In this document: piece by piece, positions 2,275-43,632 of the stretch
Position numbering within the stretch: position 1 is the first letter of the stretch
Layout: each line of letters opens with the position of its first letter
Position numbers and translations under genes: made by a program
DNA from: Myxococcota bacterium
GTDB lineage: Bacteria; Myxococcota_A; UBA9160; UBA6930
Reading direction: 5' to 3'
DNA length: 64,000 nt
Assembly (NCBI GenBank): GCA_965223415.1
Contig: OZ245002.1
Coordinates: 3,872,001-3,936,000, forward strand
The notes under the pieces: model-generated
Database searches by the model: none
Told to the model about the DNA's origin: nothing
Seen by the model: only the letters and a program-made list of their open reading frames with translations

Positions 2275-2350
2275 CGGGGTGTAGCTCAGTGGCCAGAGCC
2301 GGATCTTTGGGGGATCCGCGTCGCGGGTTCGAATCCCGCCACCCCGACCA
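2275..2350 (+). tRNA. tRNA-Pro (anticodon TGG)
   Basis: Cloverleaf: acceptor CGGGGTG/CACCCCG, D arm GCTC/GAGC, anticodon stem GGATC/GATCC with loop TTTGGGG, T arm GCGGG-TTCGAAT-CCCGC, encoded CCA; C1-G72 and A73 Pro identity elements. Confidence 0.95.
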
Positions 2351-4232
2351 AACGCCCTCGCGAGGGAGGCCTGTCAGCTCGGCAGCTTGGGCCGAGATGA
2401 TCTCGGGCGTTCGGTTGCGCTGATTGGCCCAGCAGGCCCAGCAAGAGAACGCCGGGGATGGGTGGCTACAGCATCTTCGGTTCTCTCCTGGTCTGAATGG
2501 AGAGAGCAAGAGACGTGCCAGCGGCTTCGAGGGCCTGGGGAGAGCCGTCGTGGCACTTCGCGCGACTTCAACCACGACTTTGGCGGACGCTCGACGGCCA
2601 AGCTCAGCCAAGCCAACTCAACCGCTCCAGTTCTCGAGTGCGCCGCCTCTCACTATGCGCGCCTTGAAGTTGGGGTTCAGGAAAATCTCTCCGAGGCTGC
2701 CCTTGCCTACTCGCCTTCCTCGGACGCGGGAACGAGGCGATCCTCCTCGGAGAGTTCCAGCCGGATGAACTGGCGCATCGAGTCCGGAATATCATTATCG
2801 GCAACGAGCATCTGTAGTCGGTCCCCATGCTCGCGGCACGTGTCCCCAAGGAGCCGATAGATCGCCTCTCGGCGGGCGGGATCTCTGCCCTCTTCGCCGA
2901 AATGCTCGCTCAACCCGTCAATGAAGAGGATGTTGGGCAGCGCCAGGTCGTATGCGAACGCATTCAGCTGATGCGCGACCGTGTGCGCAACGTTCACTAG
3001 CGTTCCTAGTCCTGGAGAACTCAGCTCGTCGAATCGGCGACCGTGGAAGATCGGGAGGAAAGTCCTTCGGTCTATCTTGCACTCTTCCTCCTCTCCGAAT
3101 TCGGGAGGGTGCAGTCGTGACACGAGTTCGTCGAAGACCGCTTCGAGGCCATCGATCCGTTCTTGGACGCTTCCCGACGCGTCGCCTAGTGACTCAAGCT
3201 TCGCCTGAAGCTCTTCTTTGCGACGCTCCAGATTCAGAGAATGCTCGCGATCTCGGTCCAGCTTCCCAAGAACAGCAAGGTAGTCGCTGTACTGAGAGAC
3301 TCGTGCTCGGGCAGATGCGCGGTTTTCAGCAGCCTCTGTCATCGCAGCGGCACGAGCTGATACGAACGATTCCGTTCGGAAGTCAAGCTCCCGTGCGTTC
3401 TCTCTTGCCTGCTCTTCGAGGATGACGAGCTCATTTCTTAGTTCATTGGCTCGTTGCTCACGAACCTCGAGGAGTTCGTTGGCTTCGACTAGCTGTGCAT
3501 CAACGCGCCGGCTCTCCTTTACCAAGCTCTCTCGTGAATAGTCTACGCGAGGAGGCTGCAAGCAGAGGTAGCAGTCGTCTTCACTGCTGCGGGATTGCTC
3601 CACCTCGGATCCACACCGGGGGCAGACCACGAAGTCGATATCGAGAAGGTGCTTGTTGGCTACGATCGACCGCGTAAGTTGTCTCGCGTTGGTCTCCAAC
3701 TGCGCGGCGAGCCGACTCAGCTCTTCGACGCTTCGATTCTCGGCTTCTAGTCCTTCCCTGGCTTCAGCGACCTTCGAGCTCAGTTCTAGCTGCCTGCGCC
3801 GAAGCTCCCTGATGAGGGGTTCGTCCTCAGCGCCTCGGGCAAGTTCTTTGGTCTGATCCTCCGCTGCCTGCAGTTCGCGCTTCGCTTCGGCGAGGTTTCG
3901 CTCGATCTCGGCCCGGTTCTCCATGGGCGTGTCGTCGAAGAACTTCTCGAAGAGGCTGTCGCGCGACTTGAGGTCCCTGGCCTGAGCAAGCACGTGTCGG
4001 AGTTCTTCCTGAACCTCAGCGGCTTCGACGCTGTGGATTCCGTAGAGGATCTCGAATACGTACTTGCGTTTGATGTTCTTCGCGAAGTCGCGGTGTCCGA
4101 AGACTGTGTCGCCGATCTCGTCCTGGCGCAGTGTGCAGTAGAGGAGGTAGTCGCGAATCGTGACTGGCGTCGGCTCACTCTCCGGCTGTGTTGGCCGCGA
4201 CGGCACGTCAAGGCGCGGAAGCGATAGCTGTT

Positions 4233-5360
4233 CTAGTGTCCTGTTCCAGAAGAAACCACTCGATTAGAATCGGAGTGGACGTCGAGGACGCGACCACAGT
4301 AGCGCCGCACACTCGCGAGGATCTGATCCGCGGTCTTGGTCCAGACGAAGGGTCTCGGATCGTCGTTCGTCGTCTTCAGGAAGCTCCGGATGTCGTTCTC
4401 GAGCGCCCTCGTGCTGCGATGCACGCCGCGACGGATGCAACGCTCGGTGATGAGTGCAAAGAACCGCTCGACCTGATTCAGCCATGAGCTGTACGTCGGG
4501 GTGAAGTGCACGTGGAAACGAGGGTGGCGCGCGAGCCAGCTCCGAGTTCGCTTCGTCTTGTGCGTGGTGTAGTTGTCGAGCACGAGATGGATGTCGAGTT
4601 CGGCGGGTACGTTGTCGTCGATCGTCCTGAGGAACTTCAGGAACTCCTCCGTGCGGTGCCGGCGATGGAGGGATCCGATCACTTCGCCCGTTGCGATGTT
4701 GAGTGCGGCAAAGAGTGTCGTCGTGCCATGGCGTAGGTATCCGTGTGTGCGCTGCTCCGCCCGGCCCGGTTGCATCGGCAAGACAGGCTGGTTCCGTTCC
4801 AGCGCTTGGATCTGCGATTTCTCGTCGACGCAGAGGACGACCGCGTTCGCCGGCGGAGACATGTACAGGCCGACGATATCCACCACCTTGTCCACAAAAT
4901 GGGGATCGTTGGAGAGCCGGAAGCGCTCGACTCGGTGCGGCTGGAGGCTGAATGCTCGCCAGATGCGATGAACCGTCGTCGTCGGGAGGCCTACCCGCTT
5001 CGCCATCAGGCGAACGGACCAGTGCGTCGCTCCCGTGGGCGTTTCCTCTAGCGTCAAGCGCACGACCTCATCGACCTGCTCGTCGGTCACCGTCCGGGGC
5101 GCTCCCGGCTTGGGCTCGTCGTAGAGCCCAGCGATCCGCTTTTCGACGAAGCGCTTGCGCCAGATCCCGACGGTCTCTCGTCGCTTGCCTACGCGTTCCG
5201 CGATTTCCCCATTCGTCAGCCCCTGCTCTGCGAGCAATACAATGCGCGAGCGGTAGGCCAACTGATGCGCGCTCTTCCGCCTTCTGGCGTGCGTCTGGAG
5301 CTCTTCTCGCTCCGCATCCGTCAGCACAATCGGCGTCTTGGGCCGGCCACGATTCGCCAT
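4233..5360 (-). CDS. IS630-family transposase
   Basis: HTH region, then [23 protein letters not shown] and SWLNQVE DDE motifs; stop TAG is formed at the target site. Confidence 0.95.
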
Positions 5361-5447
5361 ACGTCCCCCCAACGTGATGCCGGTAAGATGCCCCCTGCAC
5401 GTTGGGAGTTCGCACTATTTTGCGTACTTTTTTCCGAAACAGGACAC
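4236..5447 (-). mobile_element. IS630-family insertion sequence
   Basis: TIRs GTGTCCTGTTCCAGAAGAA / GTGTCCTGTTTCGGAAAAA (16/19); TA duplicated at 4234-4235 and 5448-5449 within CTAG. Confidence 0.95.
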
Positions 5448-5791
5448 TAGGAGCCAGTGCACATAGCTGGTGGAGCGTGCGTCGGCTCGATACGCGGGCA
5501 GGCGATAGGTGCCCGACTCCCCGGCGACTTCAACAGGAGCGTTGATTGTCGTAACCGCGGGCCGCGCGACAGTGAACGCGCTGTCGCCGAGCATCAGCTC
5601 GCCGACGACGGTGTCGACAGCGTCCCGGGCCTCTCTAGGCATGTCCTCGAACGAACCGCCAAGCAAGGACCGGCACAAGCGCATTAGTGTCGTCTTGCCG
5701 CTCGCGATGGGCCCGGTAATGATGTTGAGCCCCGGCTCGAATGCGACCGAGCGGTCGGTGCCGCGCAGCTGAAGCGAGTTCAAGCGAACTC

Positions 5792-6319
5792 TCACAGCCT
5801 CGTCCCCCACGACGCGTCGGCAATCTCGGGGAAGTGCCTATAGACGAGGCTCTTGAGCGTCTCGCCCGAGAGGTTGAGGTGCTTCTGAAGGATCTCTGCA
5901 CGTTTCATGGTTGACTGCCATTCCGGCTCCTCGCTGATCTTCCGCGCTACCTCACGGCCTGCCTCGGTGACGCGGTACCCGATCCCACTCTTGACAGAGA
6001 CGGGTTCGACGAGTCCCCTGCCGATTAGTCTCCCAAGGATCGCGAAGTACGCTGGGTCCCAGGGGCCGTAGCGGTACCTGACCATTCGCGTGTCGAGGTT
6101 CTCGCTCTCAAGTGTGTCGTCAGGGAGGTCCGCTTGCTTGTTTCGGATGCGGAGCATGTCGCGGAGATAGGTTGGGTACCGGAGGAGGAAGTCGAGTTTC
6201 GCGAGCTTCGTCCTGCCGTCGACCGACCCCGTGAGTCGGCGCTTGCCGCTAAACGCATCAATAAGTAGGAGGATCCGGGCCTCCGCGTCAAGAGTCGGAA
6301 CGAACTGGGTCCTACGCAT
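5792..6319 (-). CDS. lmuC: ABC-three-component/Lamassu middle component (LmuC-like, winged-helix-like), 175 aa
   Basis: LAKLDFLLRYP...YRYGPWD...LGRLIGRGLV; overlaps the upstream nuclease stop by 8 nt and the ATPase start by GTGA; middle position in the operon. Confidence 0.7.
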   Translation of the reverse strand: MRRTQFVPTLDAEARILLLIDAFSGKRRLTGSVDGRTKLAKLDFLLRYPTYLRDMLRIRNKQADLPDDTLESENLDTRMVRYRYGPWDPAYFAILGRLIGRGLVEPVSVKSGIGYRVTEAGREVARKISEEPEWQSTMKRAEILQKHLNLSGETLKSLVYRHFPEIADASWGTRL

Positions 6320-6605
6320 CGTCGGACTCGGAGCCCCAATCGAAATCGCACTCGTCGCTGATCTCACACAACTCGCCGAGCAGTAGCATTCCGTCGGCTG
6401 CGAATAACTTGTGCTGATCGATTGTGTGTGCGTTCTGCATCAGGCGGGCCGAAACGTCGTTCCAGATGTGGCGAGCCGGATTGGGCTTGTCGAGGTGGAT
6501 CGATCTTGCCGCATTCGCGTGAACGATGAGTCTCTGGCGGACGTCGTCTAGTTCCTCCTCGTACCCGAACAGGTCGGCTGCTCGACGCTCCAGTTTGTGC
6601 GTTAG

Positions 6606-7875
6606 CAGGCTGCTGAAAAACCCTGCGTTTCCGTGTTCTCGATGGTAGAAGATGGGTCGGGGGGAGAGAGGATGCGCGGCAGCGACCGAGAGCAGGGTTC
6701 GATGTTCAGCTACGTCTCGCTGGAGACGCGGATTCCGGAGGATCATCCGCTTCGCCCCATGCGGGCGATGGTGGACGAGGCGCTGAGGGGCCTGTCTCGG
6801 CGGTTCTCGGAGCTCTACGCGTCGACGGGCCGGCCGTCGATCCCACCGGAGCGGCTGCTGCGGGCTCTGTTGCTGCAGGTGCTCTACTCGATCCGGAGTG
6901 AGCGCCAGCTGATGGAGCAGCTCGAGTACAACCTGCTGTTCCGTTGGTTCGTAGGGCTGGGGATGGAGGATGCGGTCTGGGTCCCGACGGTCTTCACGAA
7001 GAACCGGGACCGGCTGCTGGAAGGGGACGTGGCGGAGGCGTTCTTTGAGGCGGTGCTGGCGCAGGGAAAGGACCACGGCCTTCTGTCGTCGGAGCACTTC
7101 ACGGTGGATGGCACGCTGATCGAGGCGTGGGCGAGCCAGAAGAGCTTCCGGGCGAAGGACGGCTCGGGGGACGACGGAGACGACGATCCGGGCAACCCGA
7201 CGGTGAACTTTCGGGGAGAGCGGCGGAGCAACGCGACGCACGAATCGACGACGGATCCCGAGGCGCGGCTGGCGCGCAAGAAGGGCCAGACCTCGCAGCT
7301 GGCCTACATGGGCCATCTGCTGACGGAGAACCGCAACGGCCTGATCGTCTCGGCGCTGCTGACGGAGGCCGATGGCTACGCCGAGCGGCTGGCAGCGCTG
7401 GAGATGGCGGAGGACGTGGCGGGAAGGCGCCGGATCACGCTGGGCGGGGACAAGGGCTACGACACCGAGGAGTTCGTGGCGGGCTGCCGGAAGCGCAACA
7501 TCACGCCGCACGTGGCGCAGCACACGACGAATCGGGCCAGCCGGATCGACGGTCGCACGGTCCGTCACGAGGGCTACGCGATCAGCCAGCACAAACGCAA
7601 GCGGATCGAGGAGTGCTTCGGTTGGATGAAGACGGTCGGGGGAATGCGAAAGACGCGTCACCGGGGCACGGATCGGGTCGGGTGGATGTTCGTCTTCACG
7701 GCGGCGGTCTACAACCTGGTCCGCATACGCAACCTCGTAGAGGTCACATGACGCACCTGCATCGAGACGAGGTACCCCGGATCGCTTCCGGGATCGAAGA
7801 GCGAGCCGAGCGGGCCGCGGGGACCCGCGCCCTCTGGCGTTCTGGCGCCTCTCAGCGCCGAATTTCAGCAGCCTG
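6606..7875 (+). mobile_element. IS5-family insertion sequence
   Basis: Perfect 13-bp TIR CAGGCTGCTGAAA; 4-bp target duplication TTAG at 6602-6605 and 7876-7879. Confidence 0.95.
6672..7751 (+). CDS. IS5-family transposase
   Basis: MRGSD...HPLR, GRPSIPPERLL, VDGTLIEAWAS, GDKGYD and RKRIEECFGW motifs. Confidence 0.95.
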   Translation: MRGSDREQGSMFSYVSLETRIPEDHPLRPMRAMVDEALRGLSRRFSELYASTGRPSIPPERLLRALLLQVLYSIRSERQLMEQLEYNLLFRWFVGLGMEDAVWVPTVFTKNRDRLLEGDVAEAFFEAVLAQGKDHGLLSSEHFTVDGTLIEAWASQKSFRAKDGSGDDGDDDPGNPTVNFRGERRSNATHESTTDPEARLARKKGQTSQLAYMGHLLTENRNGLIVSALLTEADGYAERLAALEMAEDVAGRRRITLGGDKGYDTEEFVAGCRKRNITPHVAQHTTNRASRIDGRTVRHEGYAISQHKRKRIEECFGWMKTVGGMRKTRHRGTDRVGWMFVFTAAVYNLVRIRNLVEVT

Positions 7876-9500
7876 TTAGGGCGTTCATTCTGAGGTTTCG
7901 GGCGTCCGCCTGAATCCTCGAGTCGGCGCCTGCAGCGGTCATCTTTCTCTCGACGCTCGTCAGTTGTCGCGCACCTACCTCTGTGACTCGCCTCAGGAGC
8001 GGGCGAGCAGGCGCAGTGATCGGCGCGATGAGACCGAGCAACTCTGTGCGCTCCAGCGTCTTCGCTACTAGCCGCTGCCGAGCGTCGTCCGCTGCCGACT
8101 CGGGGTCCGCAACGCATGCGGGCCAGTTTGGCCCGATCGGATCTGCCCGCATTGCTGCCTCGATCCTGGAGGCCAACCCCGCATGGATCGACTCGATCTG
8201 GGCCCGCGTAAGGTGGCCCGCATGGTCGCCGAGGAGCCTGTAGTTCATCGCCTCTATCGCGTCGCGCGTGGCATGAGGGGGGTGCATGACTACTCGTTCG
8301 AGGAAGGCACGCGCGTCCAGTTCGGGTATGCCGAAGGCTGTAGCGACCCTGGACACGAGATCAGGGTCTCCACGATTTCCCGCGCGCCGCAGATGCTTAA
8401 TGGGGCTTCGGGGACTGTGGGGCCCTTCAAGAACGAGTTCCAGCGACGCGTTCCCATCGGGCATCAGTTGATGTGTGCGATACAGGCTGCGAAGCGCGCC
8501 ACCATCTTCCTTGAGGAGATCTGATAGCACCCACGGGCCGCGTTCTTCGTCCTTGGTCTTGATTTGGAGGAATCGCCAGCGGTCGTCGCAGACAAGAGCG
8601 ACGTCTTCGTGGTGCTCCGGGACCACGCGCAGAATGTCGCCACCGAGCGCACATTCGAGGCAGAAGGGCAGTGCCACAAGCGCCTGATAGTAGTACCGCG
8701 CAAACGTTTCTGAGCCCGTGTCGTCTTCGGGTGCGATTTCTTCGGGATCTACAGGCACGGCGGCTCCGAGCGGACGGACGCGACTAGCGTGACACTGTTT
8801 GGATGCTGCTCGGGTCTCGATTACCCAGTGTGGTGCCCGTAGCCCACGCGCAGAAATGGTGGGCGCTTCGACGCGTCGCAAATGCCGAGGTTCGTGTCCC
8901 TGCACGCTGCGGCTCTCGATGGGCGGTCGATCCCCTGATTGGGGTAGGTCGGCCATCTCCCTCGGAAACCGAGGCTTCGCAACCAGACTACCGCCACAGG
9001 CAGGTCACCTTTCTGGATGCCTGATCGCGGATCGCGGGCGGCGCTGTGAACTGGTTCACAGCGGGTCTCCGGCTCCGGGTCTCAAGATGGCAGCGGACGG
9101 AGGTTCCCAACCCGCTCGCCCTCTCGAAGGACCACGCGCTTCGAGAACGACGCCATCATGTCCGCGATCCCGGCCGGGCCCACGCTCGACCCGGTGTTCT
9201 GGCAGAGAGCCAGGTCGATCGCGTCGGCGCGCTCGAGCAGCTCCAGGCCTAGTGCTCTTCTTCAAACGGAGGAGGGTTCGCCCGCCATCCACCGCACCAA
9301 CGCCGGTGTCGAGGGACGTCATCTCTTGCGCGCTAAGAGGACGGCTAGTTTTGCGCACCCCCCTGGGTTGATGTTCGGTTCTTCCTTCTTCTCTTCCGCT
9401 CTCCGAAGGAGAGCACGGCCGTCAGGCCGCCCTCTGGGGCCTCAACGCTGGGCGCTTTGCCCCGCGGCCTGGCCCTGCCCCGATCTCGTAGACACTCTGG

Positions 9501-10439
9501 TTACGCTGCTTGGGCAGGTCCTTCCTGGCCGTGCAGATTGATGCCGCCGCGGGGTGCGGGGGCGGAGTCCTCGCACCCCGCGGCGGCATGTCGGAGTTCG
9601 TACTCGATCGGGCTCGTGTAGCCGATCGACGAGTGCCTCCGAATCGGGTTGTAGAACCCGTCGATGTAGTCGACCACCATCGCCTCCGTCATGGCCGCAC
9701 CATGCAAGGGCTCGCCGAGGAAGAGCTCCGTCTTCAGCGTCCCGAAGAAGCTCTCGGCCACTGCGTTGTCCCAGCAGTTGCCGCGACGACTCATGCTCAG
9801 GACGAGCTTCGCGTGGTCGAGTGCGTGGCGGAAGTCGCTGCTCGCGTACTGGCTCCCGCGATCCGCGTGGACGAGCACCTCTCGGGCGCCTGGTCGGCTC
9901 GCGAGGGCTCGGTCCAGCGCCTGCAGCACCAATGACGTATCGATGCGATCCCCGATCGCGTAGCCGACCACGCGCCGCGAGAACATGTCGAGAATCACCG
10001 CCAGATAGAGCCACCCTTCGAGCGTCCGCAGATACGTGAGGTCCGTCGCCCAGGCCACGTCCGGGGCCGGCGCTTCGAACTCCCGCATCAGCAGGTTCGC
10101 TGCGATCGGGCTGCCGTGGTTCGAGTCCGTCGTCGTCCGGAAACGCCGCTTGTGGCTCCCCTGGAGCCCTTCGGCCGCCATCAACGAGGCCACCCGCTTG
10201 CGCGACACCCGACGTCCTTCGTCCCGAAGGTCGCGATGGATGCGCGGGCTTCCGTACGTCCCGCGACTGGCCTTGTGGGAGGCCCTGATCGCCACCCGCA
10301 GCTCGGCGTTCTCGATCGAACGCGCCGAGGGAGGACGACGCCTCCAAGCGTAGTAACCGGCCCGCGAAACCTGCAGACACCGGCAGAGGGTCACAATCGG
10401 GTAGCTCGCCCGCTCCGCGTCGATGAAACGGAACCTCAT
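9501..10439 (-). CDS. IS3 transposase OrfB (integrase core)
   Basis: YGSPRI, WATDLTY, HADRGSQY, CWDNAVAESFF. Confidence 0.95.
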   Translation of the reverse strand: MRFRFIDAERASYPIVTLCRCLQVSRAGYYAWRRRPPSARSIENAELRVAIRASHKASRGTYGSPRIHRDLRDEGRRVSRKRVASLMAAEGLQGSHKRRFRTTTDSNHGSPIAANLLMREFEAPAPDVAWATDLTYLRTLEGWLYLAVILDMFSRRVVGYAIGDRIDTSLVLQALDRALASRPGAREVLVHADRGSQYASSDFRHALDHAKLVLSMSRRGNCWDNAVAESFFGTLKTELFLGEPLHGAAMTEAMVVDYIDGFYNPIRRHSSIGYTSPIEYELRHAAAGCEDSAPAPRGGINLHGQEGPAQAA

Positions 10440-10729
10440 CGACTTTCCTTGGCGAAGGCCGTCGCTTTTTTCAGGATCTCTCGCTCCATCTCGAGCGTCT
10501 TCACCTGCTTGCGGAGCGCCTTCAGCTCTTCGCGCTCAGCACTCGAGAGCGCTCCCGTGTTCGCTGGCGTTTCCTCCGCGTCCGCCTGCTTCACCCACTC
10601 GCGCACCGCGGTCTCCGTGAGATCCAGCTCACGCGAAACCGCGCCGACGCTCTTGCCGCTCCGGCGGATCAGCTCCACCACCTCGGCCTTGTACTCCCTC
10701 GTGAACTGCCGCCTCTTTCGCTTCGCCAT
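10436..10729 (-). CDS. IS3 transposase OrfA
   Basis: RRQFTREYKAEVV HTH; EREILKKA; ATGA overlap with orfB. Confidence 0.95.
   Translation of the reverse strand: MAKRKRRQFTREYKAEVVELIRRSGKSVGAVSRELDLTETAVREWVKQADAEETPANTGALSSAEREELKALRKQVKTLEMEREILKKATAFAKESR
10465..10471 (-). other. Probable -1 programmed frameshift site of the IS3 (AAAAAAG)
   Basis: A6G motif near the end of orfA, with orfB in the -1 frame. Confidence 0.75.
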
Positions 10730-11019
10730 GACACACTCCTAACGCACTTCCGTGCAAATTGATGTGTCTACGAAACCGGGGCAAGCTCAAGACCGAAGCG
10801 AAGGGGGCGAAACGGCACACCGTGAGCCTAGAGACTCTGCGGGCCATCTTACCCGTCCGTGCGAGAAGGACCCCGTCCCGGCCGAAGTTCCGGCGCGACG
10901 AACCGTTGGCTAGCCTGAATTCCTCTTGGCAATCCAACACATCGACGAAGGTCTCTGGGAACTCAGGAGGCACTCCCGGTTCGCCCGTCAAAGAATCCCA
11001 GCCAGAACCACACTCGTGC

Positions 11020-11274: not shown

Positions 11275-11904
11275 CTAGCGTCGCCCCGAGCCCGCCATCC
11301 CCGCCAGCACGACTGCAACGCCGAGCCCGGCCAGCGAGAGGCCGAGGACGACCGTTCCGGGAAGCGCCCCGACGGCGGCTCGCGGCACGAGTTCGGCAGG
11401 GCTCTCGAGCGGGCTCGGATGGGTCGACAGCTTGACGAGCCACGCCAGCGCCTGGGTCGCGAAGAGGTAGACGTACACCCGGCGAAGTCGCCGCGCCGCG
11501 GCCCTGGTGAGGGGCATGGTCGGCGCGGTCGCGCCGAGGTGGGGCGTGAGCTCGGCCTCGAGCTCGTCCAGGGCGACCGTCGCCGAGCTCTCGGCTCCCC
11601 CGACCGCCGCCGCCCGTGCGATCAAGCCTCGCTCGAGGATCAGCGCCCGCTGCTGCCACAGGTGGTAGAAGGTCAGGCGCCGCGCCTCGAGGAGCAGGAA
11701 GATGACGGTGAGGAAGGCGGCGATGTAGACGACGTAGTGCGGAGAGGTCCGGTCGCCGAGGGCGAAGGAGGTGACCGCGGCGGTCGTGCCGATCGCCCAG
11801 TTCGTGGTGGTGTCCATCCGCATCCGCCAGATGTCGGCTCGTCCGACCATCGCGCGGTAGTAGTGGATCAGGATCGTGGCACGGGTGCCGTCCTCGATCT
11901 TCAT
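11275..11904 (-). CDS. DUF2270-family membrane protein
   Basis: HYYRAMVGRADIWRMRMDTTTNWAI and EARR motifs; TM helices. Confidence 0.85.
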   Translation of the reverse strand: MKIEDGTRATILIHYYRAMVGRADIWRMRMDTTTNWAIGTTAAVTSFALGDRTSPHYVVYIAAFLTVIFLLLEARRLTFYHLWQQRALILERGLIARAAAVGGAESSATVALDELEAELTPHLGATAPTMPLTRAAARRLRRVYVYLFATQALAWLVKLSTHPSPLESPAELVPRAAVGALPGTVVLGLSLAGLGVAVVLAGMAGSGRR

Positions 11905-12011
11905 CGTCGAGTGATTTCCCCCTGGTGTTCCGGACGGTACCGAAGGAAAGGGGGACCCTGCTGCCGCGCTCAGAAGCGCCGCCCGCCGAGGCCTGGCATC
12001 CTCGCTGCCCC

Positions 12012-14249
12012 ATGAAGCGGCTCCTCCTCGCATCCCTCATCCTGCTCGTTCTCGTCGTGGGCGTGGGCATCCTCGCTGCCCTCGGCGGGTTCGGCCGCAC
12101 CCAGGACCGCGGTGTCCTCACCGCGGCCCCGAGGGATGCCTCCGTGGTGGCGGAGCGGGGCGCGCGGCAGGATCGTGCTCGGACCGCGCTGGGCGTCGCC
12201 AGAGCGAAGCAGATCCTGTTCGGCGATCTGCACGTCCACACCACCTACTCGCTCGACGCCTTCTCGGTGAGTCTTCCCATGGCCGGAGGCGAAGGCAGTC
12301 ACCCGCCCGGCGATGCCTGCGACTTCGCGCGCTTCTGCTCGGCCCTCGACTTCTGGTCCATCAACGACCACGCCGAGAGCCTCACGCCCTACCACTGGCA
12401 GGAGACCAAGGAAGCTGTGCGGCAGTGCAACGCGGTGGCCGGCGATCCCGCGAACCCGGACCTCGTGACCTTCCTGGGCTGGGAGTGGACCCAGATCGGC
12501 ACCACCGCCGAGGACCACTACGGCCACAAGAACGTGGTCCTGCTCGGCACGGCGGACGACGAGGTGCCCACCCGGCCGATCGCGTCCCGGCGCGAGCTCT
12601 TCCCGGCCATCAATCCCTTCAGTCTTCCCGTTCGCATGGCGCTCATCGCTGCTGCGCCGGGTGGGGGAGGGCGCCAGCCGTACCTCGACTTCGCCCGCTA
12701 CCTGGAGGACCGGGCGTCGGTTCCCCCGTGTCCCCCGGGCGAGGACGTGCGTACCCTTCCCGCGGATTGCGCCGAGAGCGCGGCGACGCCGAGCGAGCTC
12801 TTCGCGCGGCTCGACCAGTGGGGCTTCCCGCGGCTCGTCATTCCCCACGGCAACACCTGGGGCATCTACACGCCGCCGCGCTCGAGCTGGGACAAGCAGC
12901 TGCGTGCCCACGAGGACCCGGAGCGGGACGAGTTCCTGATCGAGGTGTTCTCGGGCCACGGGAACATCGAGGCCTATCGGAGCTGGCGTGCCCTGGACGA
13001 GGGCCCGGACGGGAGGCTCCATTGCCCGGCACCGCGGGACGACTACCTGCCCTCGTGCTGGCAGGCCGGCGAGATCATTCGCACGCGTTGTCTCGCGGCC
13101 GGCGAGGGCGAGGAGGAATGCGAGCGCCGCGCCGTCCTCGCCAGGGCCCACCACGTGGAGGGGCGGGATGCCGGCCACCAGACGGTGCCGGGGGCCACGG
13201 TCGAGGAGTGGCTCGACGCCGGCCAGTGTCGGGACTGCTATCTCCCAGCCTTCAACTACCGCCCGGCCGGCTCGGTCCAGTACGCCCTGGCCCTGCGCGA
13301 CCGGAACACGCCGGATGCGCCGAAGCGCTTCCGCTTCGGCCTGCTCGGCTCGAGCGACGTCCACAGCGCGCGCCCGGGCAACGGCTACAAGGAGTTCGCG
13401 CGGCGGCGCATGAGCGACGCCAACCTCGGGGCCGTCGGCGGCAGCGCCCTGCTGCCCGAGCAGGAGCCCGTGCCCCACTCGGTTCCGCTCCAGCCGGGCG
13501 CCACCGTGGCCCCGGAGTTCGAGCGCTTCACGTCCTTCTTCGGCCTCGGCGGGCTCGTCGCCGTGCACAGCGAAGGCCGCGACCGCCAGGCGATCTGGGA
13601 CGCCCTCGAGCGCCGCGAGGTCTACGGGACCAGCGGCGGACGGATCCTCCTCTGGTTCGATCTCGAGGGCGAGGAGCGTCCGATCCCGATGGGCTCGTCC
13701 GTCGAGGGCTCCCGGGCGCCCCGCTTCTCCGTGCGGGCCCTGGGCGCCTTCGAGCAGAAGCCGGGCTGCCCGCCCGACGTGGTGGGCTCTCTTTCCGCCG
13801 ACCGGATCGCCCGCCTGTGTGCGGGCGAGTGCTACCACCCCTCCGATCGCCGCCATCCCATCGACCGGATCGAGGTGGTGCGCATCCGCCCGCAGGTGTC
13901 TGCCGACGAGGACGTGGCCGCCCTCATCGAGGACCCGTGGAGGGTCCTCCCGTGCGCCGATGCCGGCTCCGCCGGCTGCCAGGTGTCCTTCGAGGACGCC
14001 TCTTTCCCCGGCGCGGGCCGGGACACGGTCTACTACGTGCGCGCCCACCAGGCCGCAACGCCCACCGTCAACGCCGGCAACCTGCGCTGCCGCACCGACG
14101 AGGAGGGGGCCTGCGTGGCGATCGATCCCTGTACCGTCGACGGCAAGACCCCGACTGACGACGACTGCCTCGCGCCGGCCGAGGAGCGGGCCTGGTCCTC
14201 ACCGATCTTCGTGGATTTCGCGGAGGGGGAAGGCCCCCCGGACACCTGA
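12012..14249 (+). CDS. DUF3604-family PHP-like metal-dependent protein, N-terminally anchored, Cys-rich
   Basis: FGDLHVHTTYSLDA, INDHAE, GWEWT, GSSDVHSARPG, EVYGTSG, ERAWSSPIF. Confidence 0.85.
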   Translation: MKRLLLASLILLVLVVGVGILAALGGFGRTQDRGVLTAAPRDASVVAERGARQDRARTALGVARAKQILFGDLHVHTTYSLDAFSVSLPMAGGEGSHPPGDACDFARFCSALDFWSINDHAESLTPYHWQETKEAVRQCNAVAGDPANPDLVTFLGWEWTQIGTTAEDHYGHKNVVLLGTADDEVPTRPIASRRELFPAINPFSLPVRMALIAAAPGGGGRQPYLDFARYLEDRASVPPCPPGEDVRTLPADCAESAATPSELFARLDQWGFPRLVIPHGNTWGIYTPPRSSWDKQLRAHEDPERDEFLIEVFSGHGNIEAYRSWRALDEGPDGRLHCPAPRDDYLPSCWQAGEIIRTRCLAAGEGEEECERRAVLARAHHVEGRDAGHQTVPGATVEEWLDAGQCRDCYLPAFNYRPAGSVQYALALRDRNTPDAPKRFRFGLLGSSDVHSARPGNGYKEFARRRMSDANLGAVGGSALLPEQEPVPHSVPLQPGATVAPEFERFTSFFGLGGLVAVHSEGRDRQAIWDALERREVYGTSGGRILLWFDLEGEERPIPMGSSVEGSRAPRFSVRALGAFEQKPGCPPDVVGSLSADRIARLCAGECYHPSDRRHPIDRIEVVRIRPQVSADEDVAALIEDPWRVLPCADAGSAGCQVSFEDASFPGAGRDTVYYVRAHQAATPTVNAGNLRCRTDEEGACVAIDPCTVDGKTPTDDDCLAPAEERAWSSPIFVDFAEGEGPPDT

Positions 14250-16748
14250 TCAGGGCCTAGGCCCCTGCTCCTCGCTCTCGTCCGGCAGGGCTCCGAAGCC
14301 GATCTCGCCCAGCGACGGGTCGGCTCCGATCTTGAGGCGCAGTGCCGGCGGCCAGTCGAACACGATGTCCGCGCGGACGGGACCGATCGAGAAACGGGTG
14401 TGAAGGGGGCCCGGCTCCCACGCGGGTAGCTTCACGTGTTGGATCTCCGGGGCGCGGTCCGGGTGAACCGTGACGAGGTGGACGCCGCCTTCCTCCGAAT
14501 CCGCCACGTCGTCGAGGCGAACGTCCCTGCCGTCGCCGACGGCCCGGAACTCTCGCAGCCACTTCGGCGGAGCGCTGCTGCGGAACGGCAGGAGATGCAG
14601 GAAGGGCTTCTTCGTCCACCGGAACTCGTCCGGTGTCCAGCGGCGCCCGGCCGTCTCCCAGGCGATCTGCCCCTCGTCGTTGGCCCAGTGAAGCTCTGGA
14701 TCCGTCACGTTGTTGTGCCCGAAAAAGAGCGCGTCGATGCCGCAGGCGCGGCAATCACCCGCCCGCATGTGGTGGTCGATGAGGCTCACGAGGCCTTCTG
14801 CTCCGTACCACTCACCGACGGGCTCGAAGCCCCAGGGCGTGATCGAGCGCCGCATCCACTCCTCCTGCAAGCGAATCAGCACGCTGCCGTTCACGAGCCG
14901 CGTCCCGTGGTGCATGAGCGGCGTGACGCCGGGCAGCCAGGTGTCCCACCAGGGCGATTGGAGGAGGCCGAGGTAGCCGCCGGTCCACAGGCTCCCGAGG
15001 ACGTCGATCTCGTCGTAGAGGCCGAACTGGCCGCTGCCGCGCTCCTTCGGCGTGTAGCCGCGCGGGTCGTGGTGCATGAAGAGGAACTGGTGGCCCTTCG
15101 GCTCCGAGGCCGACCGGCGGCCGAGCTGGGTGAGGGAGCGATCGAGCCAATCGAGATCCCGATGGCCCACGCCGCCGCCCCAGTTCAACGAGGCGCCACC
15201 CGTGGTGGAGCGTTCCTCCGGGCGGAGCCCGTAGGAATTCAGGCCGAAGAACCCGTGACCGCGAAACCGAAACGCGTAGGATGTGGCGCCCAGCGCGTAC
15301 TCCCACTCGACCAGTCCGTCGTAGCGTGGCTCGTTGCGGAATGGTGCCGGCGACGGAGGCCGGAAGAGGATCGGCATGTCGCCCACGACGCGATCGAGCA
15401 TGCGACGAACGCCGAGGGGGAAGGGCGCGATCGCCAGGTTGACGACGCCGCCGTAGCCCACGAACCCGTCGTGGTTGCCCGGCACCGCGACGAAGGGCCG
15501 CTCGAAGCCGCGAATCGCCCCAGCCAGGCGGGGATACTCCTCGGAGTAGACCGAAAGCGGCGGCGCCAGCCCGAGCATGTTCGTCACCATGGACATGATG
15601 GCACTGCCCGCCTCCCCATCCGCCAGATCGCCGGCGAGCAGGACGAAGGAGATCGCGTCGATTCCCGCGTTCTCGAGGGGGCGGCGGAAGGGATCCTCCT
15701 TGTTCTCGATCATCTCGAAGACCCGGCGTAGGCGCCTCGCACTCTTGCTGTCCTGGACGTCCCCAGTCACCGCGAACATGAAGGGAGCCTCGTCCACACC
15801 GTCGTCGAGCAGAACGCCTGCCGGTGACAGGTCCCGGAAGTAGAGAGCCTCGAGCGCCGCGACGACGTCCTGCTCGTCTCCGCTCGCCGCCGCGGCGACG
15901 ACGTCGCTGAGGCGGGGCCAGAAGTGCTTCATCGGGTGATTGCAGGTGTCGTAGGAGAGCCGCAGGGCCTTCCGGAGCGGCCGTCGGGCGCACTGGAACA
16001 CCCGCGACACGTCGTCGACGAGGGTGGTCCACTCGTCCGCGCCTTCGTCGAGGTATCCGCGGAGGGCTGCGAGGTCTCCCGTTCGCAGTGCGGCCTCGAA
16101 GGGGTTCGCATCCGTCCGGGGTGCGAAGCGCGGTACGGCGCGGAGCCAGTAGTAGCCGCCCGGTAGGTCCTCCGATCCGATCCGAAGCACGTAGGCCCGT
16201 AGGTCCCGGTCCGGGTGGACCACGAGCTGGCTCCGCTCGAAGACAAACTCGATGTCGGATTCGGACCACACGTCGGTTGGGGCGATCGCGATCCCCTGTC
16301 CCTCCGCCGCCGGCTCCAGCCAGAACGAAGTCAACCGCCCATCGAAACGAACGCGGGTCGGCCGTTCGGCGAATCGCTCCCGACGTCCCGTCGCGACACC
16401 GTCGTCTTCGAGGATCCAGGGGACGTACCACGCGCCGCCGCAACGCTCTGCGAACGCCGGACTCACGAGGCGCGGGAAGAGCTGGAGCGGCGGGTGCTCG
16501 GGGAGGCGGATCTGCTTCCTGCGCGGAAGCGCGAGATCCCCGAGCCCGAGCATGGCGTCGCGAAGAGCTGCGCGGGCACAGGAGGCGGCGTCCGCTGGCG
16601 GGCCGGTCGGCGTCTGGGAGGCGATCGAAGCCTCGGCACGCAGGGGGAAGGTGCCCGCAGGCGCGACCTGCCCCCACGGCTCGATCGTGGCACAGCCTGG
16701 AAGCAGTCCCGTCGTCACGAGGACTGCGACGATCTTCGCGCCTCTCAT
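14250..16748 (-). CDS. Large lipoprotein with a calcineurin-like metallophosphoesterase domain
   Basis: Signal peptide with lipobox-like LLPGC; GDVQ, AGDLADG, PGNHDG, MHHDP and FGHN motifs. Confidence 0.7.
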   Translation of the reverse strand: MRGAKIVAVLVTTGLLPGCATIEPWGQVAPAGTFPLRAEASIASQTPTGPPADAASCARAALRDAMLGLGDLALPRRKQIRLPEHPPLQLFPRLVSPAFAERCGGAWYVPWILEDDGVATGRRERFAERPTRVRFDGRLTSFWLEPAAEGQGIAIAPTDVWSESDIEFVFERSQLVVHPDRDLRAYVLRIGSEDLPGGYYWLRAVPRFAPRTDANPFEAALRTGDLAALRGYLDEGADEWTTLVDDVSRVFQCARRPLRKALRLSYDTCNHPMKHFWPRLSDVVAAAASGDEQDVVAALEALYFRDLSPAGVLLDDGVDEAPFMFAVTGDVQDSKSARRLRRVFEMIENKEDPFRRPLENAGIDAISFVLLAGDLADGEAGSAIMSMVTNMLGLAPPLSVYSEEYPRLAGAIRGFERPFVAVPGNHDGFVGYGGVVNLAIAPFPLGVRRMLDRVVGDMPILFRPPSPAPFRNEPRYDGLVEWEYALGATSYAFRFRGHGFFGLNSYGLRPEERSTTGGASLNWGGGVGHRDLDWLDRSLTQLGRRSASEPKGHQFLFMHHDPRGYTPKERGSGQFGLYDEIDVLGSLWTGGYLGLLQSPWWDTWLPGVTPLMHHGTRLVNGSVLIRLQEEWMRRSITPWGFEPVGEWYGAEGLVSLIDHHMRAGDCRACGIDALFFGHNNVTDPELHWANDEGQIAWETAGRRWTPDEFRWTKKPFLHLLPFRSSAPPKWLREFRAVGDGRDVRLDDVADSEEGGVHLVTVHPDRAPEIQHVKLPAWEPGPLHTRFSIGPVRADIVFDWPPALRLKIGADPSLGEIGFGALPDESEEQGPRP

Positions 16749-16902
16749 CTCACGCTCTCCTTGCAGCCCGGCACGGGGATGTGCGACATCCTACGCGCTC
16801 TCCGGACCCGTGGAATCACCTAAACCGGGCGGACCTGCCGGGGCCGGGCCAGTCCCGAGCCCGCACGACTGCGTGCCGAGCCCGCGGCCCTATTCTCGAG
16901 CC

Positions 16903-17835
16903 ATGTCCCCTGGCGATCGGCGAGGACCGACGGACTCGGAGGTCGGCGAGCCCGAGGCGCGTGCCCTCGTGGCGCAGCTGGCGCCCGAGCTCGCCGACGA
17001 GAGGCTCCAACGCGCGGCGCACGGAGTCGAGAAGCAGGTGTGGCTCGTCGGCTCGCGTCACATGCTCCGCCTTCCCCGGTCTGCCCGGGCGGCGCGGCGG
17101 ATGGAGGTCGAGCGACGTGTGCTCCGGCGCATCCACGGGTGCCTGCCCCTTCCCACGCCCGAGCTTCTCGCCGTCTCCGAGGCACCCGACGCCGACCTGT
17201 GTCGCCGCGCGCCGGGGCGCCCCCTCGACTGGCGGGAGTGGGCGGCCCTCCCGATGACGACACGACGCGCCGTGCGGGCTCCGTTCGGCGAGTTCCTCGC
17301 GTCGCTCCACGCCGCGATGTCCCTCGAAGAGGCGAGAGGTCTGGGCGTGCGGGAGCTCCTCTGGCCTCCCATCGAGCAGGTGCGCGAGGTGCTCGATGGC
17401 CGCATGGGCGAGCCGGCCCGCGAGGCCCTGCTCGAGGGCGTGCTCGATGCCGCTCCGCGCTTCCAGCGGGAGCCCCGGGAGAAAGTGCTCCTGCACGGAG
17501 ATCTCTCCCACCACAACATCGCCTTCGACGCGGAGAGCCTGAGACCCACCGGCGTGTTCGACTTCGCGGACGTGTCGGTCGGCGATGCCCACCGCGACCT
17601 GCGCTACGACCCGGGCCTCGAGGAGGGGGACGACACGGCGGTGCGCGCCTACGAACGCGCGCGGGGAGGCGGTGTCTCGATCTCGCGGCCCCTGCAGCGT
17701 GCATGGCATGCCTGGTCGGCGCTCGCCAATCTCGCCTGGTCGCTCCGCAACGAGGGCGAGGAGCTGCAGCGCGCCCGCTTCGGCTGGGTGGACGCGGTCG
17801 CGGCGTGGGACCGGCGGTTCCTGGACGAGCTCTGA
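16903..17835 (+). CDS. Aminoglycoside phosphotransferase (APH)-like kinase
   Basis: LLHGDLSHHNI and VFDFAD...GDAHRDL. Confidence 0.85.
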   Translation: MSPGDRRGPTDSEVGEPEARALVAQLAPELADERLQRAAHGVEKQVWLVGSRHMLRLPRSARAARRMEVERRVLRRIHGCLPLPTPELLAVSEAPDADLCRRAPGRPLDWREWAALPMTTRRAVRAPFGEFLASLHAAMSLEEARGLGVRELLWPPIEQVREVLDGRMGEPAREALLEGVLDAAPRFQREPREKVLLHGDLSHHNIAFDAESLRPTGVFDFADVSVGDAHRDLRYDPGLEEGDDTAVRAYERARGGGVSISRPLQRAWHAWSALANLAWSLRNEGEELQRARFGWVDAVAAWDRRFLDEL

Positions 17836-43400: not shown

Positions 43401-43632
43401 GCGCACCACCGGCAGCGGACAGCTCGGCCCCCACGATGGCGCGCACCCCGGCCCGCCGTGCCGCGGCGTGGAAGCGAGGGGCGCCGTAGAGGCCGTCCCG
43501 ATCGGCCAGGGCCAGCACGCCGTGCCCCAGGGCGGCTCCCTGCTGGACCAGATCCTCCGGGTTGGACGCGCCTTCCAGGAAGGAGAACGCGCTTCGGCAC
43601 CGGAGCTCGACATAGGGGGAGGCGTCGGGCAC
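40480..43632 (-). CDS. dnaE2: Error-prone DNA polymerase III alpha subunit DnaE2
   Basis: YVELRCRSAFSFLEGAS, CQGRGSAANS, PDIDLD, QWDKDDC, GFPESHS, RQRPGSAKG and C-terminal SHDYH (SRDFH-like). Confidence 0.96.
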   Translation of the reverse strand: MPDASPYVELRCRSAFSFLEGASNPEDLVQQGAALGHGVLALADRDGLYGAPRFHAAARRAGVRAIVGAELSAAGGAPLVLLAESRQGYRNLARLLTTAQGNAPKGEARAGWEELEAHAGGLTALVPASGSLTPARLDRLKGVFGGGRVAVGVARALDRALEGQSRFAVAVAESSDVPVLAWGDVRVARPEGRRLLDAFTCLRAKTRLDQAGRELLPNGERVLRTPAEMAARFADRPAWLRATRQVAERCAFTFEDLGYRFPIYPTPPGESQSSWLRRLTFSGARERYGDPLPPRARTQIEHELAVIEKLDLAGYFLIVWDIARFAREEGILCQGRGSAANSAVCYALSITAVDPVGMELLFERFLSEERGEWPDIDLDLPSGDQREKAIQYVYEKYGPHGVGMTATVISYRTRSAFREIGKVLGMEADFLDRLSKKLRQFRFREDLDDTCAMLREAGVDPRSPRVQLLLELSEQMQGLPRHLGQHTGGLVIAQDRLDEVVPIEPAAMPDRRVVQWDKDDCADLGIIKIDLLGLGMLDALEQTIPLIREHEGVEIDLAHLPPDDRKTYAMIQEADTVGVFQIESRAQMATLPRMKPACFYDLVVEIAIIRPGPIVGQMVHPYLNRRAGREPVTYPHPSLEPILKRTLGVPIFQEQLLRLAMEASGFTGGEAEELRRAMGFKRSVERMAEIEERLRSGMQARGITGEAQEEIVRGITSFALYGFPESHSASFALIAYASAYLRAHHPAAFLVGMLNAWPMGFYNPATLVKDAQRHGVTVLPIEVAHSDWKCVLEPGETGPRPRVGLRYVAGLAKETGERIAMERAQAPFEGLADFAKRVAPKRDETFALAESGALASIDPAAPTRRSAIWQVAAVERDPQSLFAGAKPPGSDAPSPLEELSPLETTLADYRTTGITTGPHVMSHLRAELRARGVLSAGALKELPNGRFVRTAGHVIVRQRPGSAKGFCFLTLEDETGTSNAVLTPDAFARLRIPLHASPLLEVAGPIQNVDGVIHVKVGSIRPLAMETEVKSPGSGGRSGRGRGYGSHDYH

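Follow-up and report, generated by a model that had tools for sequence, protein, structure and literature searches.

The stretch analysed here (64,000 nucleotides of contig OZ245002.1, positions 3,872,001 to 3,936,000, from a Myxococcota bacterium of the GTDB lineage UBA9160; UBA6930; hereafter the window) carries between positions 2707 and 8758 a dead copy of Lamassu, a three-gene anti-phage system. The operon lies on the minus strand and is split by two insertion sequences (ISs). It begins with the 5' part of lmuA (7880..8758, minus strand, 293 codons), which encodes a Cap4 / PD-(D/E)xK nuclease domain, a linker and the start of a C-terminal domain (CTD). An IS5-family element of 1270 bp (6606..7875, plus strand), bordered by TTAG duplicates at 6602-6605 and 7876-7879, severs from it the 3' part of the gene (6312..6605, minus strand, 97 codons), which holds most of the helical CTD. 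The second gene, lmuC (5792..6319, minus strand), was never interrupted and encodes an intact winged-helix middle component (MC) of 175 amino acids (aa), MC2-like and matched by the PADLOC LmuC profile. The 5' part of lmuB (5448..5795, minus strand, 115 codons, within an open reading frame (ORF) at 5415-5810) contains the Walker A motif and matches PADLOC LmuB. An IS630-family element of 1212 bp (4236..5447, minus strand; target CTAG, TA duplicates at 4234-4235 and 5448-5449) parts it from the 3' portion (2707..4235, minus strand, 508 codons), which comprises a coiled coil, two CxxC motifs, a degenerate ABC signature and a Walker B motif of the form hhhhD-G.

Both interrupted genes can be restored in silico. 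Excision of IS630 (4236-5447) with one TA gives, by script read-through, a stop-free lmuB frame of 624 codons from GTG 5795 to 2707, and excision of IS5 (6606-7875) with one TTAG a stop-free lmuA frame of 390 codons from GTG 8758 to 6312; the frame is not preserved when one target duplication is not taken out as well. We did not adopt ATG 8956 as the lmuA start, since the homologues start close to GTG 8758. On the minus strand, lmuA overlaps lmuC by 8 nt, and lmuC, which runs from 6319 to 5792, overlaps lmuB by 4 nt; the gene order is nuclease, middle component, ATPase. The pieces align with those of an intact homologous operon, L001: LmuA residues 6-293 are 52% and residues 297-385 are 45% identical (E 4e-26 for the 3' part against L001 LmuA residues 297-385), and the LmuB pieces, matched end to end, 62% (5' part) and 59% (3' part). 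Chance frames are excluded by this colinearity across both junctions. An earlier note, made from the letters of the window, had proposed exactly this reconstruction: its IS boundaries, inverted repeats and TA/TTAG duplications hold to the base, and the splicing it described does yield the 390- and 624-codon frames. Its remark that only fragments are visible applies to lmuA and lmuB, but not to lmuC, which is whole.

As it stands, the 5' part of lmuA gains four extra codons before a stop within the end of IS5, so that the 297-aa product ends before the last three predicted CTD helices; the 5' part of lmuB now encodes a 126-aa stub with Walker A, stopping within the IS630 end. A functional system has three intact genes, whereas here lmuA and lmuB are interrupted. 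No second lmuB of the same family was found in the genome, where the sole other weak match of the LmuB search is one that we take to resemble RecN.

Both transposases are named by NCBIfam (IS630, 288 bits with a cut-off of 100; IS5, 284 bits with a cut-off of 140), that of IS5 (6672-7751) running opposite to the operon, and both elements have terminal inverted repeats and perfect target duplications (TA and TTAG, respectively). The genome, a single 5.83-Mb contig without N, holds 13 full IS5 copies (99.8-100% identical) and 12 full IS630 copies (99.9-100% identical) plus a partial one, and has undergone a recent genome-wide IS burst. The targets of all 25 full copies are CTAG, CTAA or TTAG, and the operon has about eight times as many such YTAR sites per kb (4.5) as the genome as a whole (0.55). 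The knock-outs are recent as well, because the IS copies are near-identical, there are no further stops, and LmuA and LmuB have kept their conserved columns at normal rates (49/53 and 120/128, respectively). In all, 107 repeated segments make up 3.4% of the genome, several families having 7-19 near-identical copies. In addition, the insertion point of 12 of the 25 IS630/IS5 copies coincides with the stop codon of an upstream gene (background: 148/400), since YTAR targets are rare in a genome of 71% GC and many of them are provided by TAG and TAA stops.

Could the insertions be an assembly artefact of repeated elements? Many identical IS copies exist, and a strict 31-letter bridging rule is passed at only one of the four junctions (5447, in short-read run X1). 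However, the assembly is a single contig without N, and the perfect target duplications match the motif of all other copies. Moreover, in runs X1 and X3, which belong to a single study and probably represent the source, the short-read contigs enter the IS ends by 25-51 nt and break there at all four junctions; no contig spans an empty site. An artefact is thus extremely improbable. Two further runs, X5 and X6, contain no more than short fragments, chiefly of IS DNA, and were left out of the evidence. The same data bear on a reversible switch, in which precise IS excision would restore the operon in some cells. The insertions are indeed clean and accompanied by no other lesion; however, two independent excisions would be required, and none of the 13 joints listed from the four short-read runs skips either IS, although contigs drop rare variants, so that rare empty sites are possible. 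We consider such a switch very unlikely.

The identity of the operon follows from profile searches. PADLOC profiles (2023) match four of the five gene pieces with E-values from 5e-13 to 1e-70, and the Lamassu models PDLC03848 (LmuA), PDLC03872/03869 (LmuC) and PDLC03862 (LmuB) are the best matches for the three genes. The 5' part of lmuA matches PADLOC LmuA (5e-13) and Pfam Cap4_nuclease (55.8 bits, cut-off 26.2), the 3' part alone giving no match in Pfam and PADLOC scans. The lmuC product matches PADLOC LmuC (6e-13), the 5' part of lmuB PADLOC LmuB (6.6e-14) and Pfam AAA_23 (above cut-off), and the 3' part of lmuB PDLC03862 (1e-70). On intact homologues these models give near full-length cover (residues 15-386 of LmuA for PDLC03848), with 305-314 bits for intact LmuB. 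LmuA (59-90 bits) and LmuC (36-47 bits) score modestly; the clade is therefore not at the core of those models.

Structural comparison of homologues points the same way for LmuA. The AlphaFold2 model of the intact L001 LmuA (pLDDT, the predicted local confidence, 92) has solved LmuA structures as its top Foldseek matches (9nxx, E 2e-6; 9ux7; 9hr5), and its top VIA matches, likewise solved LmuA chains, reach Z-scores of 16.3 and 16.0 over residues 13-386, the root-mean-square deviation (rmsd) of about 21 Å arising from a different orientation of the domains. A four-copy CTD complex model of the same homologue scored 0.42, one control reaching 0.49. The LmuC model (pLDDT 82.5) has a winged-helix fold, and among its alignments those to solved LmuC chains are the longest (136 residues, Z 7.6 and 7.4, rmsd 4.4-4.7). 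Among solved structures, no LmuC was recovered by a sequence search with LmuC, and no Foldseek match reached E <= 0.001. LmuC homologues in sequence data number 973. Pfam MC2 matches LmuC with E 7.5e-4 but under the cut-off of 26.9 bits, with 19.8 bits here and 21.1 and 26.7 in two homologues, and does not match the third homologue scanned.

LmuB displays the motifs of an SMC-like ATPase: Walker A (GPIASGKT), two CxxC motifs (CPRC and CYLC) and Walker B (ILFIDG). Among 75 full-length homologues, Walker A Gx4GK[S/T] is found in 74, two CxxC motifs in 73 (three in the other 2) and Walker B hhhhD-G in 64, T or S occupying that last position in 7. The LmuB profile weakly matches solved LmuB (9ux7, 7e-5; 9ny5, 1.7e-3) and also Rad50. 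Its 624 aa fit the short class, LmuB being about 600 aa in short and about 800 aa in long Lamassu according to passages of PMC12663957, which also allow 0, 1 or 2 CxxC motifs in short LmuB.

The nearest known systems are the short, or type II, Lamassu-Cap4 operons DdmABC of V. cholerae (9ny5, 9nxx, 9uxl) and LmuACB of Salmonella enterica Tennessee (9hqx, 9hr5). With them the operon has in common the lmuA-lmuC-lmuB order, protein sizes of about 390, 175 and 620-650 aa, a Cap4 N-terminus, a helical CTD, a winged-helix LmuC and Walker A Gx4GK[S/T]. In sequence, however, these systems are very distant, and the present operon further differs from them in its D-G Walker B and in being broken twice. 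Parts of 10.1101/2025.03.14.643221 class both systems as CTD7/MC3, whereas the present operon is MC2-like and Pfam CTD models matched none of six intact LmuA homologues; it therefore probably belongs to a different branch. Likewise, its LmuB has two CxxC motifs, and passages of PMC12663957 describe none in Vc-Cap4. The clade may already be a named one in the published LmuB tree.

Accordingly, much of what the earlier note had proposed about identity is borne out: a Lamassu / ABC-three-component operon, with PADLOC matches for LmuA, LmuC and LmuB and a LmuA homologue whose model best matches solved LmuA, in an LmuA-LmuC-LmuB order found both here and in intact homologues, with a Cap4 effector above the Pfam cut-off and a short LmuB. 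The divergence it saw in the CTD and middle component is partly real, as the CTD has no Pfam match in any of the six homologues and MC2 stays under its cut-off, yet PADLOC models match both proteins. Its expectation that automatic annotation would probably miss the operon fails for the PADLOC profiles, which match four of five pieces and the intact LmuA, but stands for NCBIfam, which gives no Lamassu name, and for a plasmid homologue annotated mostly as 'hypothetical protein'.

The co-occurrence of the three genes elsewhere, set beforehand as a test, was also observed. Relatives were found with an LmuC alignment in data holding one genome per species, which gave at least 543 loci, of which 80 were retrieved; a genome scan with a single LmuB piece as query found nothing. 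Of the 80, 70 carry full-length lmuA, lmuC and lmuB; another five are cut near a contig end and five are broken. No fourth gene recurs in them apart from antisense shadows and, in 6/80 loci each, a small number of mobility-type genes. This bears on the possibility that the operon, rather than being Lamassu, is a different SMC/ABC cassette such as a methyltransferase-linked one, in favour of which one may cite the deviant Walker B and a CTD without Pfam match. Given the lack of a recurring fourth ORF family across the 80 loci, the Lmu models as best PADLOC matches of all three genes and the nuclease-middle-ATPase order, we hold this to be highly improbable.

In a quick-method tree (51 of 76 rows after thinning, with no published reference sequences among the rows), the nearest homologue comes from an Acidobacteriota bin and lies inside a mixed-phylum clade, nine phylum groups being represented. 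There are also 24 plasmid records with homologues (16 from Streptomyces or Kitasatospora), and in one Streptomyces plasmid copy (L090:1859-2746) a trypsin-like peptidase gene lies directly upstream of lmuA. The operon has 60.7% GC against 71.0% for the genome, and lmuC was found in none of the 40 relatives searched, 24 of them of high quality. Horizontal acquisition is indicated by this low GC, the absence of lmuC from relatives and the mixed-phylum clade of homologues.

Taken together, the locus would be a short, three-gene (type II) Lamassu-Cap4 operon, horizontally acquired and recently inactivated by two ISs during a genome-wide burst, a reading to which we give a probability of about 0.88. 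Its anatomy, its homology, the fold of its homologue, the conservation of the operon and the recency of the ISs are direct observations. Several points nevertheless weigh against it. The structural alignments of LmuA to solved Lamassus are only 9-13% identical, and the Z-scores of LmuC against solved LmuC are tied with those of unrelated winged-helix regulators. LmuC retains 67 of 76 conserved columns, just under the lowest of 43 homologues, most changes being conservative. The Walker B hhhhD-G departs from the short consensus hhhhD[Q/S/T/E] as well as from the long hhhhDD; the published pattern is a consensus and hhhhD-G marks a subclade, so Lamassu membership stands. We identified no close relative whose phenotype has been published, and the defence activity of the clade is a prediction; the Lamassu literature examined gave no functional test of this clade, and a narrow literature search (titles and abstract starts) no paper on it or on an IS-broken Lamassu. 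Finally, the probability that both ISs land in this particular operon is 0.004, before correction for post-hoc choice.

How the intact operon worked is drawn from its relatives, and most likely it resembled the solved short Lamassus. As passages of PMC12663957, 10.1101/2025.03.14.643221 and 10.1101/2025.06.23.660979 describe for these, a LmuB dimer and LmuC would hold one LmuA by its CTD, and the LmuB2-LmuC complex with LmuA would bind DNA ends. ATP turnover would then free LmuA, which would oligomerise via its CTD, pair its Cap4 domains and cut DNA, so that the infected cell is killed and the infection aborted. For this clade we infer the complex, the trigger and the cell killing alike from these published relatives. 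A CTD-dependent LmuA tetramer is needed for activity according to parts of 10.1101/2025.03.14.643221 and PMC12663957, and defence required every component in the systems tested in those of 10.1101/2022.05.11.491447. In the present copy, IS5 takes away the last third of LmuA, with most of the CTD helices, and IS630 parts Walker A from the rest of LmuB. With the LmuA CTD lost and the LmuB Walker A separated, the operon in its present state is predicted to be inactive and non-toxic.

Regarding the manner of its loss, we infer neutral decay. A neutral double insertion is a sufficient explanation, because near-identical IS copies are numerous and targets about eightfold denser in the operon. In simulations, some IS630-IS5 pair fell within 3.56 kb in 30% of cases and within 1.16 kb in 15%. 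The operon-specific joint probability of 0.004 would rather favour a selected and ordered inactivation of a costly, auto-activating system, in which the lmuA CTD was struck first and the later lmuB insertion was neutral, since loss of LmuB with LmuA whole would free a toxic nuclease. In line with this, locus L069 is broken in lmuA only, and an independent copy, L072, combines a frameshift at the start of the lmuA CTD with insertions in both lmuC and lmuB. Passages of 10.1101/2025.03.14.643221 report hyper-toxicity for mutations that weaken the hold of LmuCB on LmuA, and parts of PMC10359306 describe IS insertions in anti-phage defence genes, as well as the use of YTAR targets by IS5. However, that survey covered IS1 and IS10 and its passages do not name Lamassu, insertion of an IS into a defence gene being what it has in common with the present case.

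Other evidence runs counter to an ordered loss. L006 carries a single in-frame TAG in lmuB (6224-6226) with lmuA and lmuC full length, and L025 has frameshifts in lmuB only, although either may be an assembly error. LmuA purified alone was inactive (passages of PMC12663957), and lmuC deletions merely abolished defence (passages of 10.1101/2022.05.11.491447). In addition, the IS copies are too similar for dating the two events, and IS630/IS5 copies are found inside genes in about 7/25 cases against a background of 105/400, according to a rough classifier, which failed to flag lmuA itself. Selected, ordered inactivation thus appears unlikely, though far from negligible, and neutral decay is retained. 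Among the broken loci, L050, broken in both genes, was discounted, as L054 of the same bin is intact. In L072 (3744-10408), lmuC holds two identical ORFs of 458 aa and lmuB another, which we take to be transposase-like. Five further sites were classed as intragenic; the genes in or next to which they lie (WS/DGAT, TetR, MatE, sigma-54 activator and luciferase-like) include no defence genes.

The locus itself adds no new mechanism, the family being known and the copy inactive. It illustrates cleanly how an IS burst can cost a genome a defence operon. It also draws attention to a large Lamassu clade, with at least 543 loci and with nine phylum groups in the tree, whose LmuB has an unusual Walker B and a pair of zinc hooks; intact members of this clade are available. 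A bolder proposal, which we judge decidedly unlikely, sees in the locus the fossil of a short-Lamassu subclade that is widespread and marked by a D-G Walker B, a double zinc hook, an MC2-like LmuC and a CTD with a conserved C-x(3)-D-x-C-x(3)-W at its end; the decay of the locus would have followed a forced order, effector CTD first and sensor second. If so, Lamassu would act like an addiction module, lost only by first disarming LmuA, and proof of a forced order would offer a general lesson on how abortive-infection systems can be shed.

The surroundings of the operon also bear traces of mobility. To its left, the low-GC stretch is bordered by a tRNA-Pro(TGG) gene (2275..2350, plus strand). 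The DNA behind this gene varies among same-genus genomes, about 100 bp being in common with G002 only, and no repeat of the tRNA 3' end (attR) was found within the window. Upstream of the operon lie a 165-bp multi-copy element end (9307..9471), derived from a 2.3-kb element with about 19 copies and ending where an IS3 starts, and this single-copy IS3-family element (9470..10789, minus strand, ends approximate; NCBIfam IS3, 340 bits, above 160). The 2.3-kb element is presumably IS21-like, judging by its transposase layout. The remnant abutting IS3 (9307-10789) suggests an IS3-adjacent deletion, and four ISs or IS remnants lie inside 7 kb. On the right flank, a DUF2270 gene was not found in any of five same-genus genomes with the query used, so GC alone places the right border of the island.

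A search of 2300-9500 gave no sigma-70-type promoter, and terminators are as numerous there as in shuffled sequences. A perfect -24/-12 motif, presumably sigma-54-type, lies just downstream of lmuB (2506-2520, minus strand; one match in the window against 0.05 expected), facing tRNA-Pro with no evident gene behind it, and is possibly the remnant of a lost gene. Upstream of tRNA-Pro lies a CHASE-PAS histidine kinase (223-2235); G003 and G004 have it in the corresponding position, whereas G001 and G005 lack it there. To the right of the island, 11275-17835 encodes DUF2270, DUF3604, an 832-aa metallophosphoesterase and an APH-family phosphotransferase, and a second tRNA-Pro (CGG; ARAGORN), unusually long at 83 nt, is located at 43454-43536 on the minus strand.

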